NCBI GenBank assembly: GCA_964454175.1
Contig: CAYVSA010000028.1
Location: forward strand, 12,151 to 22,765
Source of the DNA: an uncultured Pseudomonadota bacterium
GTDB lineage: Bacteria; BMS3Abin14
Length of the DNA stretch: 10,615 nucleotides
Direction of reading: 5' to 3'
The translations under genes were made by a program, and so were the position numbers. Position 1 is the first letter of the stretch; every line of letters begins with the position of its first letter. The notes beneath the pieces were generated by a model. It was not told the DNA's origin. It did no database searches and saw only the letters and a list, made by a program, of their open reading frames with translations. Shown here piece after piece: positions 2,077 through 10,615 of this stretch.

Positions 2077-2111
2077 CTGCGGTTTTGCGGTCTTTTCCGA
2101 GAGGTGAATCA

Positions 2112-3665
2112 ATGAGAAAAGTCTTCTTCTCGCTCCCTGTTCTTCTTTCTTTCCTGTTCTTCCTTGGAGGCTGTGGCACGGTTGGCGACGATGTTGCCCC
2201 CACTTCTGCGCTGACTGATCCTCCGGACAAGGTGTTCTTCAACGGTTCATCTGGAAAGGTCAGGTTCTCCGGGACCGCTTCGGACAACCTTTCCATCGAT
2301 ATCGTCCAGATCTCCTTTGACGATGGCACCACCTGGAAGACAGCTACCAAATCAGGATCAGGTTCATCCGTCACCTGGAGCTATCTGGCGACAGCAGGCC
2401 TCTTACCAGCCGGGGCCAATACGGTCAAATCAAAGGCCTTTGATAAAGCAGGCAACGTGGGAACTCCGGCAGATGCTGTGTCTGTCGATAGCACAATCAG
2501 CACCTCCGTTTCCACCCTCGAATCCATCGTCAGCAGCGGCACCTGGTCCACGATATACTTCTCTTCCGGCAGCGGCGATGCCTACGGAGACAGCTCAACA
2601 GCTGTTGTCCTGGAAAATACGGCTGCACTTATGATCCAGGGAAACGGCTACGGGCAGGCGATCACCTCGGCCAACTATTCGGCCTCTGACATGACTCCGG
2701 CAACCGTCCTGGAAACAACCTTTGCAGCCTCCCGTCTATTTTCCGTAGGACACGATCTGAGTATCAAGAACCTGAGAGTTGTTGGCGCCATCAGCGCTGT
2801 CGATGTTGCGGATGTTATATCCACCCTGGATGTGACTGTGGATGACAGCGTATTCACGGGACAGAAAGGTTTTGCCATCGATGCAGCAGACAGTAATGCT
2901 GGCGACTCAACGACTGTTTCGGTAAGTGTGACCGGCACAATGATAGACAACACTCTTTCTGATGCCAACGACAGGGGCGGAATTTCCCTCCAGAAAGTCA
3001 CCTTCGCCGTGGAAGATTCCATGGTTACAAACCAGTGGGCATTGCCCATCGGTGTGGGAGGTGGAATTTACGTTGATCTGGGTTCTGGTTATATCAACAG
3101 CAGTGTTTTCGTTGATAACTCCACGGCTATCTATGTTGCCAATGGTTCTCCGAGGATATCGTCATGCGTCATCACCGGATCAGGAACGTCACCATCTAAC
3201 GGGATAAGGTTTACCGGAGTGAGCGCAAGCCCCATTATCAGGTACAATACGATAAGCGCAAACACCGGCTTCGGTGTTGGTCTCCTGGGTAATTCCAGGC
3301 CGGTTTTCACCCACAACACGATTGCCAACAACGGCAACGCCGGGATTTATATCGATTTTGACTTCACCAACGCTAACGACGTGCCAGTGCTCGGAGATTG
3401 CACAGTCTTCAATATATGCCAATCCGGTGGAAGGAACGGTATATTTAACAACTCCCCCTACGAGGTCATTGTCACCAGCACCAGTTCCACCTGGATCCCC
3501 ATAAGTGCGGAAGGAAACTTCTGGGGAACGGGTAAAACCACTTCGGCCCTTGTGGACCTGGTGATTCAGGACGGGGACACTACACTTAATGGCGGTTCGG
3601 AGGATTTTCCCCTGGCGAGAGCATATCTGGACTTCTCACCCTTTGATCCCACTGATCCCAACTGA
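2112..3665 (+). CDS. Lipoprotein with bacterial Ig-like domain and right-handed parallel beta-helix (pectin-lyase-like, NosD/DUF1565-like), 517 aa
   Basis: RBS GAGGTG then ATG 2112. Signal MRKVFFSLPVLLSFLFFLGG|C. Ig-like APTSALTDP...FSGTASDN..IDIVQISFDDGTTWKTA...WSY...VKSKAFDKAGN. Beta-helix repeats (SPRISSCVITG, PIIRYNTISANTGFGV, PVFTHNTIANNGNAGIYI). C-terminal cap GNFWG...IQDGD...LDFSPF. Confidence 0.85.
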   Translation: MRKVFFSLPVLLSFLFFLGGCGTVGDDVAPTSALTDPPDKVFFNGSSGKVRFSGTASDNLSIDIVQISFDDGTTWKTATKSGSGSSVTWSYLATAGLLPAGANTVKSKAFDKAGNVGTPADAVSVDSTISTSVSTLESIVSSGTWSTIYFSSGSGDAYGDSSTAVVLENTAALMIQGNGYGQAITSANYSASDMTPATVLETTFAASRLFSVGHDLSIKNLRVVGAISAVDVADVISTLDVTVDDSVFTGQKGFAIDAADSNAGDSTTVSVSVTGTMIDNTLSDANDRGGISLQKVTFAVEDSMVTNQWALPIGVGGGIYVDLGSGYINSSVFVDNSTAIYVANGSPRISSCVITGSGTSPSNGIRFTGVSASPIIRYNTISANTGFGVGLLGNSRPVFTHNTIANNGNAGIYIDFDFTNANDVPVLGDCTVFNICQSGGRNGIFNNSPYEVIVTSTSSTWIPISAEGNFWGTGKTTSALVDLVIQDGDTTLNGGSEDFPLARAYLDFSPFDPTDPN

Positions 3666-3674
3666 GGCACGCTG

Positions 3675-4781
3675 ATGCTGGAGTCAACCGTCCACTTCAC
3701 AGATCTGCGGTCGAGAGTCGGCTACAACCTCCTGGACAAGACCAGGAAGCTGTTTGCGGCCAGCGGCTTTGCCGACTGTATAGACGAGGGCGACAGGGTA
3801 GCGGTAAAGCTCCATTTCGGCGAGGCTGGAAACACGGCCTTTTTGCCCCCGATGTACGCCCGGGTGATCGTCGAGGAGATTATAAAAGCCGGCGGCAAGC
3901 CCTTCGTCACCGACACGAACACGCTGTACAAGGGCAGCCGCGGTGACGCTATCGACCACCTGGAAACAGCAATTAAGAACGGCTTTACCTACGCGACGCT
4001 GGGCGCCCCTGTGATCATCGGAGACGGTCTGATCGGCCTCGATTACATCGCTGAAAGGATAAACGCGAAGCGGTTCGAGGAAGTGAAAATAGCGTCGGCA
4101 GTCTACCACGCAGACGCCATCGTAACCCTTGCCCACTTCACCGCCCACGAGCTGTTCGGTTTTGGAGGGGCGATTAAGAGCATCGGCATGGGCGGCGCCG
4201 CCCCCTCGGGAAAGCAGGAGATGCACTCGGACGTGCTCCCGGTGGTCGACTCTGAAAAGTGTACATCCTGCGGCAGATGCGTGAGGTGGTGTCCGGCAGA
4301 TTCGATCAGCCTGCAGGAGGGAATGACCGCTCAGATCATCGAGAGCATCTGTATCGGGTGCGGAGAGTGCACGGTGGTGTGCACCGACGGGGCGATCGCA
4401 GTGAACTGGAAGACGGACGTGCCGGCGCTCCACGAGAAGACGGTCGAGTATGCCTACGGCGTGCTGAAGAATAAACCGGGCAAGCACCTTTCGTTCAACT
4501 TCCTGGTGAACATGAGTCCGGACTGCGATTGCTATGATTTTAATGATCCCCCCTTCGTGGCGGATGTGGGAATAATGGTTTCAACAGACCCTGTGGCAGT
4601 TGATCAGGCCGCAGTTGACATGGCAAACCGTGCGCAGGGTCTGGGAGGCAGTAAACTGGAGGAGCTGGACGCTAAGGACAAGTTCAGGAGCGTTACCGGC
4701 ATCGACTGGGAACCGCTCCTGGCCCACGGTGAGGAAATCGGCCTGGGCAAGAGGGAGTACCGCATTGAAGAGATCGAGTAG
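3675..4781 (+). CDS. DUF362 domain Fe-S protein with 2x[4Fe-4S] ferredoxin insert (COG2768-like), 368 aa
   Basis: VAVKLHFGEAGN, PFVTDTNTLYKGSR and FGGAIKSIGMG family motifs. CTSCGRCVRWCP (4260-4295) and CIGCGECTVVCT (4350-4385) ferredoxin motifs. SPDCDC (CDC at 4524-4532), S-x-DPVAVDQA, and C-terminal GEEIGLGKREY. Confidence 0.9.
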   Translation: MLESTVHFTDLRSRVGYNLLDKTRKLFAASGFADCIDEGDRVAVKLHFGEAGNTAFLPPMYARVIVEEIIKAGGKPFVTDTNTLYKGSRGDAIDHLETAIKNGFTYATLGAPVIIGDGLIGLDYIAERINAKRFEEVKIASAVYHADAIVTLAHFTAHELFGFGGAIKSIGMGGAAPSGKQEMHSDVLPVVDSEKCTSCGRCVRWCPADSISLQEGMTAQIIESICIGCGECTVVCTDGAIAVNWKTDVPALHEKTVEYAYGVLKNKPGKHLSFNFLVNMSPDCDCYDFNDPPFVADVGIMVSTDPVAVDQAAVDMANRAQGLGGSKLEELDAKDKFRSVTGIDWEPLLAHGEEIGLGKREYRIEEIE

Positions 4782-5706
4782 GCTGATCGCGTCAGCTGCA
4801 CTAGCTGTTTCACTGGCCTTATCGGGTACGGCCCAGGCCGAGGAGATGAAGAAAACCATCAGGGCCGTACTGGTCCCGGAGCGAAACATCTTCAACCAGC
4901 ACATTAAGTATAACTACATGTGCGACTACGTCTGTGCGGTGATGCCGGTCAAGTTCAATTTCGGGGTCATGAAGGACTACAGGGATACCCTTGCCGCCCT
5001 TTACGACGGTGATGCCGAAGTGGCTGTACTGGGAAGCTTCCTCATGGCGCACGGGATCATTAAACACGGCTTCATCCCCCTTGTAAGGCCGGTCTGGGAG
5101 TCTGGAGAGTCAACATACAAGTCCGTCATATTCGCAAGAAAAGACTCCGGTTTGACCCGTGACCTGTCAACCTGGAAGGGCAGGTCCTTTACCTTCGCTA
5201 ACAAGCACACATCCGCAGGGTATTTCTATCCACTGTACCTGCTGAAAAAAAACGGAGTCGGCATGGAGCCGGAAAAATTCTTCTCCGTCATGAAGATAGC
5301 GGGGAGCCACGATGCCGCTATCTGGATGGTCTCCAACGGGTTTGCAGAAATAGGCGCTGCAAAGAACACCGTTTTTGAAGAGACGATGAAGAAAAATCCG
5401 GACCTGGGGAATATAATTGATGTGTTGTACGTTGGCGGAAAATTCCCGGACGCCACCTTTGCGGTATCGCCGGCAATGGAGCCAGAACTCAGGGAGCAGC
5501 TGCGAGATACCCTGCTCAATATGGACAAAACACCTGGAGGACTTAAAGCCCTTAAGAAATTCGGGGCCAGGAAGTTCATCCCCTGCGAGCTGAAGGATTA
5601 CGACACCGTCCTTGACGTAGTAGCAGCCGCCGGCTTCGATATAAGTACCATCGATGTAGTTGACCACTCGCCCAAAAAGCAGGACACAGAGGGCGGAAGA
5701 CCTTGA
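4765..5706 (+). CDS. PhnD/phosphonate-binding-family periplasmic substrate-binding protein (orphan, sensor-associated), 313 aa
   Basis: Proposed TTG start at 4765 (in frame with the 4600 ORF, AGGGAG at 4752-4757, 7-nt spacing) gives a clean Sec signal MKRSSRLIASAALAVSLALSGTAQA|EE. PhnD-family motifs: KDY..TLAALYDGDAEVA, STYKSVIFARKDSG, KGRSFTFANKHTSAGYFYP, GSHDAAIWMV, FPDATFAVSPAM...LRDTLLNM. Confidence 0.85.
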   Translation: MKRSSRLIASAALAVSLALSGTAQAEEMKKTIRAVLVPERNIFNQHIKYNYMCDYVCAVMPVKFNFGVMKDYRDTLAALYDGDAEVAVLGSFLMAHGIIKHGFIPLVRPVWESGESTYKSVIFARKDSGLTRDLSTWKGRSFTFANKHTSAGYFYPLYLLKKNGVGMEPEKFFSVMKIAGSHDAAIWMVSNGFAEIGAAKNTVFEETMKKNPDLGNIIDVLYVGGKFPDATFAVSPAMEPELREQLRDTLLNMDKTPGGLKALKKFGARKFIPCELKDYDTVLDVVAAAGFDISTIDVVDHSPKKQDTEGGRP

Positions 5707-7964
5707 AACGTAACATCGTTATCGGCCTATCGGCCATTTTTTTCGTAGTTCTCGTAGGGGGAGGATTGGTTGCCTCCTTCATGAACACGTTCAATAACTA
5801 TTATGTCGCTTACTACCAGATGGATGGAGTCATCAGGGATATACAGGACCTCCACACCAGAACACTCATAGCGGTAGGTGAGATCGAGAGGGCCAGGTTC
5901 GATAAGGACAGGCTCCAGGACCTTCTGGACAGGGTGACCAACATAAATCTTTCTCTTTCCAGGCTTGAGCAGGAGGTCAATCCGGACCTGGTAACCAACA
6001 AGGGGTGCGGGATGTGCCATGATAACCCGGAATCCCTGGTTTCCGACCTCTCACAGGTCCTCAGCCTTTTCGAGTCCGCCTTCAACGATTTCACGATGGC
6101 TGCCAGCCTGCTCATCACCAGGGGCGAGGGAGTGAGCCCGGAGGATGTCAAAACCAACCTGCAGCATGACCTTGATCTTATCTACGACATTGTTTTTGAG
6201 CTCAACCAGGTTACGACACCCATGCTGGAGCACATCCACATCGAGATGGACAACAACATTGCAAGGATCGGCAGGTTAAACACCGTAACGGTGATAATTA
6301 CCATAATCCTTGTCCTGGGAGGGATGATCCTGACGGCAACAGCAGTTACCAAGCCGATCCGGAAGCTCACAAGGGGCACCGAGGCTGTCGTCCAGGGCGA
6401 CTACGACTTCAGGATAGATCTCCCTGGCAAGGACGAGATGAACCTGCTTGCAGAGCGGTTCAACTACATGTCCGAGGTCCTTTCGAACAGGGAAAAACGG
6501 CTGAACGAAAAGAAAGAGGAGCTGCAGGAGCTCAATGAAACTCTGGAAAAAAAGGTGCACGACAGGACTGTGGCCCTCAGGGAGAAACAGGAGGAAGTAA
6601 ACAGGAAATACCTGGAACTGGAATCCACCAACGAGGAACTGCAGGCATCTTACGTTCAGCTCCAGTCCACGGCTGCCGAGCTGGAGGAGGCTCAGTCCAG
6701 GCTTCAGGAGAATTATGACATCCTCCAGACCATGAACAAGGAGCTCAGGCGTGCCAACGACGTCAAGAACAAGTTCCTATCCATAATGTCCCATGAACTC
6801 AGGACACCCCTGACAGTCATAAACGGATATCTTTCACTGGTGCTCGAAAAAAACTACGGAAAGCCGTCAAAGTCGTTAAAAGATGTTCTGGCTGTCGTCA
6901 AGGAGCAGGGCGTAAATCAGCTCAGCCTTATCGAAGACCTTCTGGATCTCACCAGGATCGAATCGGGAGAATTCAGGCTCGACCGCCAGCCGTGTTATCC
7001 GGAAGAAATGATGAAGAAGCTCATCGAAAGTTTCAAGCCGAAGATGGACGAGAAGGACATCACGGTTACCCTGGATGTGGAGGGTGAAATCAGCCAGGTC
7101 TTCTGGGATTATCAAAAGATCCTGCAGATCTTCCAGAACCTCATGGACAACGCTCTCAAGTTCACTCCCAACGGCGGTTGGGTGGCTATCAGCATCAGGC
7201 CGAAGACCGATTTTGTAGAGTTCAGGGTCAGCGATAACGGGATAGGTATTCCGAAGGAGCAGCAGAACAGTATTTTCGACCGGTTCTACCAGGTTGACAG
7301 TTCGTCCACCAGGAAATTCGGAGGATCAGGGCTGGGGCTGTCCATTGTGAGGGAGATCGTGCTGGCCCACAACGGCAAGATCTTTGTAGACAGTGAAGAG
7401 GAAAAAGGAACGACCTTCCTCATCCTGCTGCCTCCGGGCGACCCGGCGAGTGTCACCACCCTGGGCGACGAGCACGTCGAGGACTGGAAGGAAGAGGTAT
7501 CTTCAACCAGCCTGGTTGAGGGGAGAGGCGAAAAGATCCTGGTGGTGGACGATGATGAAGCCTTCCTGAAGATGATGTCCATGATCCTCACGAAATACGG
7601 ATACGATGCCTATACAACCACGGACTCCAAAAGTGTGATAGGAGCTGTGAAGGAGAACGGGATCCAGGTCGTATTGCTCGATCTTATGATGCCTGACCTG
7701 GACGGATACGAGATCACCAGGAGGATGAAACGAGATAAGGTGACGAAAAAAATACCGGTTATCATTGTCTCCGCTTCCGGCGGCAAGGAGATCACCAGGA
7801 AAATAAAGGAAGCCGGTGGTGACGATCACATTATCAAGCCTTTTGATCACGAAGAGATCCTTAACCTCATCAGCGGCAGCCTGAAAAAGGAAAGCGGAGA
7901 TGACGGTGAAGCCGCTACAGACCCGGGGCAGCAGGATGGCGGGCAAGACGACACATCAGGTTAA
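5703..7964 (+). CDS. Membrane hybrid sensor histidine kinase: TM - periplasmic helical domain with CxxCH - TM - HAMP - long coiled coil - HisKA - HATPase_c - REC, 753 aa
   Basis: TTG start overlaps the upstream stop (TTGA). TM1 IVIGLSAIFFVVLVGGGLVA; CGMCH at 6006-6020; TM2 TVTVIITIILVLGGMILTATAV; HAMP TKPIRKL...DEMNLLAERFNYM. H-box MSHELRTPL (His at 6792-6794), N-box NLMDNALKFT, G1 DNGIGI, F-box FDRFYQVD, G2 GSGLGL. REC: KILVVDDD...LLDLMMPDLDG (Asp at 7680-7682)...KPF. Confidence 0.95.
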   Translation: MKRNIVIGLSAIFFVVLVGGGLVASFMNTFNNYYVAYYQMDGVIRDIQDLHTRTLIAVGEIERARFDKDRLQDLLDRVTNINLSLSRLEQEVNPDLVTNKGCGMCHDNPESLVSDLSQVLSLFESAFNDFTMAASLLITRGEGVSPEDVKTNLQHDLDLIYDIVFELNQVTTPMLEHIHIEMDNNIARIGRLNTVTVIITIILVLGGMILTATAVTKPIRKLTRGTEAVVQGDYDFRIDLPGKDEMNLLAERFNYMSEVLSNREKRLNEKKEELQELNETLEKKVHDRTVALREKQEEVNRKYLELESTNEELQASYVQLQSTAAELEEAQSRLQENYDILQTMNKELRRANDVKNKFLSIMSHELRTPLTVINGYLSLVLEKNYGKPSKSLKDVLAVVKEQGVNQLSLIEDLLDLTRIESGEFRLDRQPCYPEEMMKKLIESFKPKMDEKDITVTLDVEGEISQVFWDYQKILQIFQNLMDNALKFTPNGGWVAISIRPKTDFVEFRVSDNGIGIPKEQQNSIFDRFYQVDSSSTRKFGGSGLGLSIVREIVLAHNGKIFVDSEEEKGTTFLILLPPGDPASVTTLGDEHVEDWKEEVSSTSLVEGRGEKILVVDDDEAFLKMMSMILTKYGYDAYTTTDSKSVIGAVKENGIQVVLLDLMMPDLDGYEITRRMKRDKVTKKIPVIIVSASGGKEITRKIKEAGGDDHIIKPFDHEEILNLISGSLKKESGDDGEAATDPGQQDGGQDDTSG

Positions 7965-9354
7965 GTTGACCCAGGACATATTTGAGCCGTTGAAGGCTCT
8001 TTCTACACAAGCAGCCCGGGCCGCGTCACAGCTTGGGCTGTCAGTGTTTCTGGTGGGGGGGTCCGTCAGGGACCTGCTTGAAAACAGGCTTCCTTCTGAT
8101 TGGGACCTGGTAGTATTCGGGAAGGAAGAAGCCGGGGTTGACGAGCTGGCATCGGTGCTTGCCCAAACCTGGGGGGTCAGGGAACCGGTATCTTTTCCCC
8201 GATTCGGAACTTATCTGGTTCTTGGACCTTCCGGCCAGGTTGAGATCGCCCACGCAGACAGAAGGACCGGTCTGGTCCCTCAGTCAGACGACCCGCTTGT
8301 GCGTGATGCCCTGTCCAGGGATTTCACGATCAACGCACTGTACATGGATCTGGAACAGATCGGATCTGATCGCGGCAGAATAACTGTCCTGGACCCGGCC
8401 GGTAATGGACTTGCCGATCTATCCGCTGGTCTGCTCAAAACGCCTCTCAACCCGCTGGTAACACTTGGGGATGACCCACTCAGGATTCTCAGGGCGGCAA
8501 GGCTTCGGAGCACCACCGGTTATCAATTGGACCGGGCTTTCGGCTCTGCAGCACGCAGGGCAGTCAGGCACCTGACGGGGGTAGCTACGGAAAGAGTCAG
8601 GGATGAACTGGAAAAGATCATGGTGTCAGAGCGTCCCTCGCTGGGGCTGTCCTCCCTGGGGAAATGGGGGGCTTTTTCAGTGATAGCTCCTGAGATCCAT
8701 GAGATGGTTCACTTCCGCCAGCGCACCCCGCATCATTATCCCAGCCTGTTTAACCACACCCTTCGCGCAGTTGACAGAGTCCCCCCGGACCCTGTTCTCA
8801 GGTGGGCAGCCCTGACCCATGATTGCGGGAAGCCTGCTGTGAGGAGCAGGTCCGGTGAAGTGGACAGGTATTTCGGTCACGAATCAACAGGTGCTGTTAT
8901 GGCCTCTGAGCTCCTGACCAGGCTGAAGTTTGGTAAACAGTTCATAAAGGATGTTACCGATCTGGTCGGGCTTCACATGGTCCAGTACGACTCACAGTGG
9001 ACTGACAGGGCGATTCGAAGGTTCATGGTAAGAGCAGGTGACCACCTCCCCAGACTACTGGTGCTGCTGGAAGCTGATGCTTCGGCCCTTCGGCTCAGGG
9101 CTGATAAACTCAGATCTTTAAATGTCATGAAGAAAAAACTGGAGGAAATGGCCGGTACCGAACCTCCCCTTACCTCCCCCCTGGATGGCGAAAGGATCAT
9201 GGATCTTCTTAATGTTGAAGCGGGCCCGGTGGTTGGTCAAGCAAAAGATGCCCTCGTAAGGGCAGTGGTGGATGGGGACCTGAATCCGGACGCAAAAGAA
9301 TCTGAGCTTTTCCTGCTCAGATGGTTCGAAGGGCGCAGCGGTAAGCAGCTTTAA
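7900..9354 (+). CDS. Class II tRNA nucleotidyltransferase (CCA/poly(A) polymerase family) with HD domain; possibly CC-adding type
   Basis: Motif A LVGGSVRDLL...DWD, motif B variant DALSRDFTINAL, motif C DPAGNGLADL, motif D DDPLRILRAAR, motif E ERVRDELEK. HD domain HH..SLFNHT...AALTHDCGKP...GHE...HM...AD. C-terminal PLDGERIMDLLNVEAGPVVG. Start uncertain (ATG 7900, GTG 7906 or ATG 7936); all overlap the kinase 3' end. Confidence 0.9.
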   Translation: MTVKPLQTRGSRMAGKTTHQVKLTQDIFEPLKALSTQAARAASQLGLSVFLVGGSVRDLLENRLPSDWDLVVFGKEEAGVDELASVLAQTWGVREPVSFPRFGTYLVLGPSGQVEIAHADRRTGLVPQSDDPLVRDALSRDFTINALYMDLEQIGSDRGRITVLDPAGNGLADLSAGLLKTPLNPLVTLGDDPLRILRAARLRSTTGYQLDRAFGSAARRAVRHLTGVATERVRDELEKIMVSERPSLGLSSLGKWGAFSVIAPEIHEMVHFRQRTPHHYPSLFNHTLRAVDRVPPDPVLRWAALTHDCGKPAVRSRSGEVDRYFGHESTGAVMASELLTRLKFGKQFIKDVTDLVGLHMVQYDSQWTDRAIRRFMVRAGDHLPRLLVLLEADASALRLRADKLRSLNVMKKKLEEMAGTEPPLTSPLDGERIMDLLNVEAGPVVGQAKDALVRAVVDGDLNPDAKESELFLLRWFEGRSGKQL

Positions 9355-10615
9355 TTGATTCATCCAGTGTGGACGAATCGTCCAGTTCAACCTTTGAACT
9401 CTCTCCCAGTTCAACCGGGCGTACAAATGAATTCATGTGGTCTGCCAGGACCTCCACTCTCCCGTCAGATATGCCCCCTTTTTTCCTTCGCACCGCAAGG
9501 CGTTCTTTTAAAGTGTTCTCGCTTGCCGTGAGGTGCAGGACCAGCAGTCTCGCACCGGCCTCCGCGGCAGTCTTTGCCGCCGCCTCCCTGTGTGCTCTTT
9601 GAGAGAAGGTCGCATCTGCGACAACGCTGCCTCCAGCCCCCAGGGTTTTTAAGGCCTCATCGTTGATCTTTCTGTAGGTTTTTTCTGTCATGTCGGGTGA
9701 ATAGATCCCACTTTCGAAGGGAACCTCGCGGCTCTCTTCAGGATCGATCCCCACCAGTTCTTTTCTTACGCGGTCGGATGAAAAAACGGTCAGATCAAGC
9801 TTGCTCGCAAGGCCGTTTGCCACAGAGGATTTGCCGGAACCTATTAATCCGCAAGTCAGAAAATATGTTAGGGGACTGAGTGTCCTGGCGAATTTTTCGG
9901 CAAGGAGCATAAAGTCAGCGGCGTTATCCCGGGCCTGTGCGGCTTCGGATCCTGACACGGATGGATCTTTAAAACGGTAACCCTCAACCTTTCCACGGAC
10001 GACAGCTCTGTAGCATTTGTAGAAGTTGTAGAGTGCTTCGTTGCCCTCCTGTCCGGCCTCTTTCAGGTAGGCTTCCGTATATGTGGATGCCAGCTGTAGG
10101 TGTCCGAGCTTTTCAATGTCCATAGACAAAAAGGCTGCGTCGCACAGTATGTCCGAGTACCTGAAACGCTTGTTGAATTCAATGCAGTCGAATATCTGTA
10201 TTCCGTTGTCCATACATATGTGCTGGGAATGAAGATCGCCGTGCCCATCCCGTATCCAGCCGCCAGTTTCCCTTTCGTCAAACAGCCCGGCATTCACGCT
10301 CCTGAAAGTCCTGGTGTACTCTGCCAGCAAGTCAAAGGTCTGCTTTGACAGGGTCTGACTTATAAATGGTTTTATCTGGGCGAAATCCTCTTCTGTATTG
10401 ATATCTACAGCCGAGGTACCGCCAATTCGGGTGATCTCTTCTGAGGACGGGGCTGACAGGTGGAAGTGGGAGATCTTCCCTGCTATCCTTTTCATCATCA
10501 TCCCGGTCGCCTCTCCTTTTTCAAGGAGGTTTGAAAGGATGCGGTCCTCGGGAAGACGAAGCATCATGACCGCGTATTCAACAGGCTTGCCCTCGCCGCC
10601 GATTTTCAGGGTGCC
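9317..10615 (-). CDS. Bifunctional aminoglycoside-phosphotransferase-like / AAA_33 P-loop kinase fusion (COG2187+COG0645), 5' end outside window
   Basis: Frame is open from 10615 (GTLKIGGEGKPVEYAVMMLRLP...). APH-like catalytic RDGHGDLH and FDCIEFNKRFRYSD..CDAAFLSMD, YKCYRAVVRGKV. Walker A GLIGSGKS, SSDRVRK, VVADATF. TGA stop at 9317-9319, overlapping the nucleotidyltransferase 3' end by 38 bp. Confidence 0.9.
   Translation of the reverse strand, partial: GTLKIGGEGKPVEYAVMMLRLPEDRILSNLLEKGEATGMMMKRIAGKISHFHLSAPSSEEITRIGGTSAVDINTEEDFAQIKPFISQTLSKQTFDLLAEYTRTFRSVNAGLFDERETGGWIRDGHGDLHSQHICMDNGIQIFDCIEFNKRFRYSDILCDAAFLSMDIEKLGHLQLASTYTEAYLKEAGQEGNEALYNFYKCYRAVVRGKVEGYRFKDPSVSGSEAAQARDNAADFMLLAEKFARTLSPLTYFLTCGLIGSGKSSVANGLASKLDLTVFSSDRVRKELVGIDPEESREVPFESGIYSPDMTEKTYRKINDEALKTLGAGGSVVADATFSQRAHREAAAKTAAEAGARLLVLHLTASENTLKERLAVRRKKGGISDGRVEVLADHMNSFVRPVELGESSKVELDDSSTLDESIKAAYRCALRTI

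Follow-up and report, generated by a model that had tools for sequence, protein, structure and literature searches.

A PF12974 binding protein as the probable co-receptor of a hybrid histidine kinase with a helical heme-motif sensor

Introduction

Kinases that depend on a periplasmic binding protein are known from a handful of cases. In TorT–TorS, and in Tar with maltose-binding protein, such a protein docks on the all-helical sensor of a hybrid kinase or chemoreceptor; neither TorT nor maltose-binding protein belongs to the PF12974 family, and the TorS and Tar sensors are not known to carry heme. In AioX–AioS–AioR and in ArrX/ArxX, the ligand receptor is a transporter-less solute-binding protein (SBP) of the PF12974 family, encoded beside a membrane kinase. 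Here we describe a locus of likewise transporter-less design, at positions 3675 to 7964 of a 10,615-nucleotide (nt) stretch of DNA, hereafter the window, from an uncultured Pseudomonadota bacterium of the GTDB lineage BMS3Abin14 (assembly GCA_964454175.1, contig CAYVSA010000028.1, positions 12,151 to 22,765). Its three genes encode an iron-sulfur protein of the DUF362 family, a PhnD/PtxB-family SBP and a hybrid histidine kinase with a periplasmic CxxCH motif. The SBP and the kinase form a real and conserved module, which is probably an AioX/AioS-like co-receptor system with an apparently undescribed helical heme-motif sensor; in the open-access literature we found no description of a helical CxxCH sensor paired with a PhnD-type protein.

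A 2021 review lists AioX/AioS as a PF12974 SBP–kinase pair in which the AioS sensor is sCache-like, and lists TorS/TorT as well (PMC8050422). Whereas AioS is sCache-like, the window sensor is an all-helical bundle with a CxxCH motif and has no sCache match in Pfam. Compared with AioX-type proteins, the window SBP belongs to a different clade with a latch-loop motif of its own, PERNIF, which sCache-linked SBPs lack. Unlike in AioXSR, no sigma-54 regulator is adjacent to the pair in the window, although one follows the in-phylum paralogous pairs at two loci (L095 and L096). The design of the pair is that of AioX/AioS/AioR and, more loosely, that of TorT/TorS and of Tar with maltose-binding protein. 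In TtrS and ThsS, according to PMC5408782, a PhnD-like domain reads an oxyanion (tetrathionate or thiosulfate) for a histidine kinase. That domain is fused into the kinase, whereas the window SBP is separate and secreted, and the window kinase has a helical heme-motif domain of its own.

Desulfovibrio DcrA has a periplasmic heme-c sensor. The Geobacter proteins GSU0582 and GSU0935 have PAS-like periplasmic heme-c sensor domains (PMC3831638), and Cache_heme receptors have periplasmic sensor domains with CxxCH (PMC12889525). As in the window kinase, CxxCH in these proteins lies in the periplasmic sensor of a transmembrane signalling protein, and they are taken to sense redox state or gases; their domains have PAS or Cache folds, whereas the window sensor is all-helical and comes with a dedicated binding protein.

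Results

Gene structure and orphan status of the binding protein

The three genes are co-directional on the plus strand and joined by overlaps of 17 and 4 nt, which bears out the layout proposed in an earlier note made from the letters of this DNA. The DUF362 gene (3675..4781, ATG to TAG) encodes 368 amino acids (aa). The SBP gene (4765..5706, +, TTG to TGA, 313 aa) begins 17 nt inside its 3′ end, behind a Shine-Dalgarno-like AGAGGGAG (4750..4757, +) that we read from the sequence 7 nt 5′ of the TTG. The TTG of the kinase gene (5703..7964, +, 753 aa) overlaps the SBP stop as TTGA at 5703-5706. For the SBP, TTG 4765 is the best start: translation from it opens with a signal-peptide-like segment, MKRSSRLIASAALAVSLALSGTAQA, belonging to a 25-residue signal peptide that ends in AQA (4765..4839, +), and both the position of the signal peptide and the TTG are shared by loci from four other genera (L026, L027, L031 and L032). 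The 4-nt overlap of SBP stop and kinase start recurs in 5 of 10 orthologous loci, and also at the non-orthologous L094, L095 and L096.

Tight packing is not peculiar to these three genes and extends into the flanks, where the upstream gene stops 9 nt before 3675 and a downstream open reading frame (ORF) for a CCA-adding enzyme, starting at ATG 7900 or 7936, overlaps the end of the kinase gene. A promoter scan of the region returned 7 promoter-like sites against 4.5 expected, consensus matches that carry little weight; its plus-strand sites lay at 1905, 2048 and 3416, none of them at the start of one of the three genes. A terminator scan, likewise based on consensus matches of little weight, gave none that was convincing between the three genes.

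The host assembly measures 2.17 Mb and is 98.5% complete. Its only full-length PF12974 gene is the SBP, next to a 233-aa partial one on another contig, and no PhnE-type permease exceeded the cut-off anywhere in the genome (best 52.9 bits against 216.7). Pfam searches found no gene for an ATP-binding cassette (ABC) permease or ATPase in the window, in agreement with the earlier note. With a single full-length family member and no PhnE over cut-off, the SBP is an orphan.

The binding protein and its relatives accompany membrane receptors

We next considered how far the pairing extends beyond the window. A phylum-level search returned 16 genomes, all from one family. Within the phylum the DUF362, SBP and kinase genes are contiguous and co-directional in 10 of 10 complete loci, with three more fragments consistent; these are close kin, and their synteny counts roughly once. 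For a view from outside, 401 genomes were searched with an SBP profile and the loci examined in three tiers by score. The top tier comprised the nine closest non-orthologous SBP loci (seven from other families, two in-phylum paralogues). At eight of these the neighbour is a kinase or another membrane receptor, and at none is it an ABC gene, so the phnCE-type neighbourhood that the earlier note had set against its own proposal did not appear. At five of them (L089, L090, L094, L095 and L096) an intact kinase with a helical CxxCH domain between two transmembrane (TM) segments is encoded directly downstream, with the motif at residue 104 in L089, 106 in L090 and 89 in the other three; L094 is a hybrid kinase, and L095 and L096 are each followed by a sigma-54 regulator. 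Pfam detects HAMP in four of the five, the exception being L089. The receptor at L093 (7479-7988, −, G312) has decayed to an ORF of 169 aa, behind which further stops lie, and carries CMQYY in place of CxxCH, beside an intact SBP gene. L091 and L092 (G191 and G022) encode heme-less helical HAMP receptors, a GGDEF-EAL protein and a kinase.

Adjacency to receptors recurred across lineages at lower scores. Within 1.5-kb flanks, 8 of the 11 loci in the next tier have the SBP beside a kinase or HAMP receptor and none has it beside ABC genes. The lower tier of 20 loci was more mixed, with 12 beside receptors of sCache, GAF, GGDEF, HD-GYP or MCP types, 6 beside ABC_tran or BPD_transp_1 genes and 2 ambiguous. 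Over all 40 non-orthologous PF12974 loci, 28 are beside membrane receptors versus 6 beside transporters. Searching in the reverse direction with a broad sensor profile, we found an SBP adjoining six of eight non-orthologous CxxCH helical kinases.

Three loci in these searches have features of their own. At L091 and L092 the SBP gene is followed by genes for a HAMP-PAS-GGDEF-EAL protein of 1197-1204 aa, a kinase of 616-617 aa and an RR-HTH regulator, and an EB_dh gene precedes the SBP at L092; the near-identical heme-less helical periplasmic domains of the two membrane proteins suggest one binding protein serving two receptors. L144 (628-2106, −, G011) encodes an in-phylum paralogous kinase with CLTCHH at residue 94 and an adjacent receiver protein, in a genome with one SBP of the window SBP's clade.

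A distinct clade with a latch-loop signature and a probable anion-binding pocket

The SBP matches PF12974 (Phosphonate-bd) with an E-value of 6.7e-43 and 147.2 bits (cut-off 27) and the wider model TIGR01098 with 118.9 bits (cut-off 112.05), and falls well short of the PhnD equivalog TIGR03431 (110 against 261.1). Its nearest relatives in the PDB are PtxB (E 4.1e-19), PhnD-type proteins, ArrX (6x6b, E 1.6e-11) and AioX (6esv, E 1.6e-7). A quick maximum-likelihood tree was built from 50 SBPs, with two long fused proteins trimmed and L156 left out for lack of a tblastn match to extract. In it, the clade of the window SBP numbers 24 (SH-aLRT 96) and includes every CxxCH-linked SBP along with two linked to heme-less helical receptors, three double-SBP forms, L088 and one long-branch row, while all five ABC-linked SBPs in the tree fall outside. 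The sCache_3_2 kinases pair with SBPs of another clade.

The clade also has a sequence signature. The combination of PE[RHQ]N[IV]F.Q at positions 38-45 with T[TS]AG is complete only in rows of this clade, though not in all of them: each of the three double-SBP rows departs from it at one or two positions, and the motif is missing from L165, the long-branch row. At the PERNIF positions, ABC-linked and sCache-linked SBPs carry different residues. In the window SBP, PERNIF (residues 38-43; 4876..4893, +) forms the latch loop and is invariant in alignment A2.

Pocket residues were mapped by alignment to Ps_PtxB (5o2j), with residue roles from PMC5700983. The oxyanion positions are kept: PtxB Y94 corresponds to Y118, S124/T125 to T149/S150, H155 to H182 and D16 to E39. 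The counterpart of the STS anion-binding motif of PtxB is TSAG (residues 149-152; 5209..5220, +), in which the third Ser is replaced by Ala (A151), and H182 lies in GSHD (residues 180-183; 5302..5313, +). The Tyr that caps phosphite in PtxB is replaced by A230, beside an invariant D229, and at this position the SBP is closer to E. coli PhnD than to PtxB. The pocket therefore looks able to bind an anion and probably is not specific for phosphite.

Three fused double SBPs of the same clade (L078, 1231-3108, −; L079, 1249-3078, −; L080, 607-2367, +) join PBP_like_2 to Phosphonate-bd in open frames of 587-626 aa. In each, a CxxCH falls within the PF12974 part (about residues 508-540), and a HAMP-containing membrane protein is encoded after it, an arrangement in which the heme motif may have been placed on the binding protein instead of the receptor.

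Predicted docking of the binding protein on the sensor

The earlier note had suggested a complex prediction of the SBP with the periplasmic domain of the kinase. We ran this for mature SBP residues 27-313 and sensor residues 28-192, each with its own alignment, and obtained a score, which is the model's own confidence, of 0.89 (runs 0.89, 0.90 and 0.89) versus 0.01 for the best of three controls. The score mark applied is reached by 116 of 157 solved complexes and by 2 of 215 mismatched pairs. At least 82% of contacts are shared between runs, the pLDDT of the partner is at least 76, and the PDB entries matched by the SBP bear binding-protein names alone, giving no sign of a solved homologous complex behind the score.

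Both lobes of the SBP contribute to the predicted interface. Contacts come from the PERNIF loop (residues 38, 41-44, 46-47 and 50), from residues 67-71 and 74, and from the surroundings of GSHD and W187 (175-181, 183-184 and 187-188). On the sensor they come from residues 64-82 and 128-152 (including 134-136 and 138-145), which contain S135 and T139, two residues invariant in the sensor family. The interface thus overlaps residues found invariant independently of the prediction, and in the model the defining motifs of the SBP clade and of the sensor family lie opposite one another. In PtxB, as described in PMC5700983, D16 belongs to a loop that closes over the pocket like a latch and shifts by about 4.5 Å when ligand binds. 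Since E39 aligns with D16, the docking surface would include an element expected to report ligand occupancy. The prediction supports binding of the two proteins and does not show it.

A helical periplasmic sensor with a conserved CxxCH motif

From Pfam domains and hydropathy peaks, the kinase runs from TM1 (residues ~5-27) through a periplasmic region (~28-192) and TM2 (~193-215) to HAMP (6333..6482, +; Pfam 1.4e-11), a coiled coil, HisKA (6765..6968, +; 7.5e-17), HATPase_c (7107..7436, +; 2.3e-32) and a C-terminal receiver (7536..7871, +; Response_reg 2.2e-25). It is a hybrid histidine kinase by its parts: a HisKA domain with the H-box His (SHELRTP, residues 363-369), HATPase_c (GSGLG, residues 541-545) and a receiver with an acidic pocket (DLMMPD, residues 660-665). 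The NCBIfam names TorS, WalK, BarA and the like were rejected, as they match the kinase core alone and far below cut-off; TorS (TIGR02956), for instance, reaches 250.8 bits against a cut-off of 676.5, over model positions 428-828 only.

The periplasmic domain (residues ~28-192; 5784..6278, +) carries CGMCH at residues 102-106 (C102, C105 and H106; 6006..6020, +). The sensor is present at full length in 12 of 15 other genomes of the family, and a single-sequence query of 25 genomes from other families did not find it, the HAMP part alone being matched. Across 13 orthologous sensors of 28-54% identity, C102, G103, C105, H106, S135, T139, M174 and H177 are invariant. The presence of CxxCH in 13 of 13 sensors so divergent makes the motif more than a chance occurrence. 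Searched against 1.84 billion representative proteins, the orthologue profile gave 11 matches at E≤0.001. Six of these reach E≤1e-10 and represent either close relatives or fragments. Four weak matches (P0008, P0009, P0010 and P0012) are kinases of the same TM-helical-CxxCH-TM-HAMP layout and reveal a wider, very divergent sensor family. Over this broad family the sole invariant columns are C102, C105, H106, S135 and T139, both in a 10-row alignment covering three subgroups (A3) and in one of 15 rows. The S135-x3-T139 motif (6105..6119, +) is part of the predicted contact surface with the SBP.

No Pfam model matches the sensor domain at E≤1, including PF12729, PF02203, sCache, PAS and PF11845. 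An AlphaFold2 model built from the orthologue alignment is all-helical with a pLDDT of 81.9, and a Foldseek search with it against the PDB returned nothing at E≤0.001. VIA-align places the domain near natural four-helix-bundle (4HB) sensors: the ligand-binding domains (LBDs) of Vc1313 (8bsa, Z 14.6) and MCP2201 (9kup, 13.4), HK9 (3va9, 12.7), McpN (6gcv, 12.0) and QseE (9m07, 11.8). Values of 11.8-14.6 are common for helical bundles and designed bundles score comparably, so this resemblance speaks for the general fold only. By ESM Atlas features the nearest clusters are 4HB_MCP_1, TarH and CHASE3; unlike the window domain, none of the 4HB domains listed has a covalent heme motif, and the 4HB_MCP/TarH sensors show no profile match to it.

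As the earlier note had claimed, CxxCH is on the periplasmic side: it lies between two TM segments and hence in an exported domain. The genome encodes cytochrome c maturation proteins, with five matches to Cytochrom_C_asm (PF01578) over cut-off and a ResB-like gene, and the host can therefore make heme c. Heme attachment at CGMCH is predicted. Helix register would put H106 near the membrane-proximal end of the bundle, about level with residues 174-179 of the last helix, which makes M174 or H177 in PMLEH (P173, M174 and H177; 6219..6233, +) plausible distal ligands.

The DUF362 protein is probably a lineage-specific neighbour

The DUF362 protein matches PF04015 with an E-value of 3.5e-43 and 148.4 bits (cut-off 24), plus Fer4 families, and has a 2x[4Fe-4S] ferredoxin insertion made of two CxxCxxCxxxC motifs (residues 196-206 and 226-236). 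The earlier note had cast it as a third partner in signalling and expected its adjacency to be conserved. Within the phylum the adjacency is kept at 10 of 10 complete loci; at the loci examined beyond the phylum it is absent. By tblastn, no DUF362 gene occurs at nine outside or paralogous SBP–receptor loci, and within 1.5-kb flanks no SBP adjoins any of 18 out-of-phylum DUF362 genes. A kinase stands beside one of those 18 (G316), where it is polytopic, lacks CxxCH and an SBP, and is accompanied by hydrogenase-like genes; the genes adjoining the rest are heterogeneous. Five genomes (G101, G022, G191, G261 and G312) encode both DUF362 and SBP, on different contigs or far apart. Two loci within the phylum keep the trio in altered surroundings, with both flanks different in G002 (L025) and the upstream flank different in G010 (L024). 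G004, an assembly rated 100% complete, has neither the sensor nor the SBP nor this copy of DUF362; the CCA-enzyme gene is missing too, and an assembly gap is a simpler reading of this than co-loss.

Conservation of the three proteins is uneven. Within the phylum, identity is 65-88% for the DUF362 protein, whereas the SBP reaches 46-57% and the sensor 28-54%. Of 401 genomes, 144 encode full-length DUF362 homologues, mostly with one match per genome at threshold; those outside the phylum share 31-56% identity. The host genome has five family members. The AlphaFold2 model (pLDDT 86.5) gave 16 Foldseek matches at E≤0.001 (E 1.8e-6 to 4.9e-4), of which the 12 listed are all of LarA type (nickel-pincer racemases), malate racemase included, or the structural-genomics entry 4nar ranked among them. 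PMC11770544 puts DUF362 in one Pfam clan with DUF2088, the N-terminal family of LarA. Compared with LarA, the window protein has the 2x[4Fe-4S] insertion, and TM-scores are low (0.32-0.46). In the open-access literature we found no function for DUF362, and no member appears to be characterised there.

A signalling role for the DUF362 protein is not supported. It is likely co-transcribed with the pair in this lineage and is most likely an operon passenger, a LarA-superfamily enzyme that shares the transcription unit in this lineage alone. A PNP_UDP_1 phosphorylase gene adjoins DUF362 upstream in G010 (L024:3883-4566, +) and downstream in G262 (L109:2631-3383, +), which holds the closest out-of-phylum homologue; with two cases only, this is a possible hint at the pathway of the enzyme.

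Discussion

The account that we favour, and consider probable as a whole, is a two-protein periplasmic unit in which the SBP is co-receptor of a heme-motif helical kinase and the DUF362 protein is an operon neighbour in this lineage only. The co-receptor role proposed in the earlier note is supported, with receptor linkage at eight of the nine loci of the closest relatives, and is the most likely function of the SBP.

On this account, the secreted SBP would bind a small oxyanion-like ligand and then close. Its ligand-dependent conformation would dock both lobes, including the PERNIF latch loop, on the membrane-distal tip of the kinase bundle, a surface formed by the helix-1/helix-2 end and by the helix-3/helix-4 loop bearing S135 and T139. 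A c-type heme would sit in the bundle near the membrane, held covalently by C102 and C105; H106 would be its proximal ligand, and M174 or H177 its likely distal one. Its redox state, or a diatomic gas, would be a second input that gates the response or tunes the bundle. The combined signal would then pass through TM2 and HAMP to the HisKA/HATPase core and on to the C-terminal receiver, and a downstream regulator would be encoded outside the window. We infer the ligand class, the attachment of heme, the direction of regulation and the output, and likewise the sensing of an oxyanion and of redox state or gas.

Several points weigh against this account. M174 and H177, invariant among orthologues, lack conservation across the broad family. 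No response regulator or Hpt gene adjoins the pair in the window, no regulator is adjacent in any orthologous locus, and the genome has only two Hpt matches, which fall within ORFs encoding 726 and 689 aa. At L088, the gene for a close SBP has no receptor gene as neighbour, and two CxxCH helical kinases (L144 and L135) have no SBP within a 1.5-kb flank, from which it follows that sensors of this type need not have an SBP encoded next to them. Orthologues of the sensor occur in one small phylum only, and synteny there is therefore not independent evidence. Such sensors are normally dimeric, whereas the complex was predicted with a monomeric one and from separate alignments. The attachment of heme, the binding of ligand and the contact between SBP and kinase are all predictions.

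One rival keeps all three proteins in the signalling unit, with the cytoplasmic 2x[4Fe-4S] protein acting as a redox input to the kinase or as an enzyme whose substrate or product is sensed. The contiguous trio in every complete phylum locus, the start/stop overlaps kept in several genera, the survival of the trio where flanks differ, and a second locus in the host genome, where about 3 kb separate a DUF362 paralogue from genes for a HAMP kinase and a sigma-54 regulator, would all fit such a unit. The phylum is a single family, however, and this synteny counts roughly once. Outside it, neither the SBP–receptor loci nor the DUF362 loci show the other partner, the one kinase beside a DUF362 gene is of the polytopic, CxxCH-less type, and five genomes hold the two genes apart; the widespread occurrence of DUF362, its heterogeneous neighbours, its LarA-type fold and its far higher conservation than its neighbours point the same way. 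We consider a three-component unit unlikely.

We give a similarly small chance to an SBP-dependent kinase with a single input, in which CxxCH would be a structural disulfide or a metal site. The lack of conserved distal-ligand candidates across the broad family would suit it, as would the heme-less helical receptors that work with close SBP relatives at L091 and L092, and heme attachment is itself predicted from sequence. Against it, C, C and H are invariant with canonical c-type spacing in every intact member seen, and a disulfide has no need of the invariant His. The sole copy without the motif is also truncated to 169 aa (CMQYY, L093), the domain is periplasmic, and the genome encodes cytochrome c maturation proteins. 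An absence of any functional link, with the SBP serving an unrecognised transporter and the gene order reflecting compact-genome packing, was already disfavoured and seems very improbable. Neighbouring genes are packed equally tightly, and ABC-linked PF12974 proteins do occur in the same sample (6 of 20 lower-tier loci). Yet the genome has no PhnE-type permease over cut-off, the ABC-linked SBPs fall outside a clade whose nearest members are receptor-linked in eight of nine cases and ABC-linked in none, and the interface carries a class-specific motif with a score far above the best control.

A bolder combination would go beyond the favoured co-receptor account, and taken as one claim we regard it as doubtful, if less so than the rivals above. 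It would see here the founder of a receptor class not described before, in which a four-helix bundle holds a covalent heme near the membrane and docks a dedicated PhnD-type protein at its tip. The module would work by coincidence detection, signalling a periplasmic oxyanion only under a certain redox or gas state, or vice versa, and would occur in several bacterial lineages with kinase, hybrid-kinase and sigma-54 outputs. In the phylum of the host it would also be welded through overlapping frames to a LarA-fold iron-sulfur enzyme whose substrate or product could be the signal.

If heme is attached, the co-receptor system would provide a third structural solution for extracytoplasmic heme-c sensing, after the PAS-like and Cache_heme domains, and the first such sensor tied to a co-receptor. 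It offers a testable system for how chemical and redox inputs combine in one transmembrane receptor. In the sample examined, one PF12974 clade is dedicated to helical sensors with a heme-attachment motif, and for the window SBP's clade the annotation 'phosphonate ABC transporter substrate-binding protein' is corrected. PE[RHQ]N[IV]F.Q in the SBP and C..CH plus S-x3-T in the sensor are possible seeds for family models.

Surrounding genes and further loci

Upstream of the DUF362 gene, two genes (486-1949, + and 2085-3665, +) encode probable lipoproteins with Gly-rich linkers after a Cys; one has a CarboxypepD_reg-like domain and the other is a right-handed beta-helix, NosD-like protein. The beta-helix gene is found 5′ of DUF362 in five related loci. 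Downstream, the gene at 7900-9354 (+) belongs to the CCA-adding/poly(A) polymerase family, has an HD domain and overlaps the 3′ end of the kinase gene by 29 or 65 nt, depending on the start chosen. It is followed by a convergent gene (9317-10615, −) whose product has an AAA_33 kinase-like C-terminal half, with a weak Zeta_toxin match, and an N-terminal half of ~240 residues that has no Pfam match. Most loci of the phylum keep the CCA-enzyme and AAA_33 genes as neighbours.

A second cluster in the host genome (L185, G000:C12:18000-35000) brings together a DUF362 paralogue, SBP-like fragments and a kinase. Its order is a 226-aa OpuAC-like half binding protein, the DUF362 paralogue (without Fer4), a Fer4_5 polyferredoxin membrane protein, a ResB-like protein, a HAMP histidine kinase, a sigma-54 regulator, an EB_dh heme-binding-type protein, CarboxypepD_reg, HEAT repeats, a Fer4_5 protein, the 233-aa partial Phosphonate-bd protein and Sulf_transp. 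At L158 (2-2410, +) and L160 (4716-6887, − and 5-1027, −), PF12974 SBPs of another clade are paired with kinases and sigma-54 regulators directly beside multiheme cytochrome genes, which have 10, 8 and 3 CxxCH motifs.

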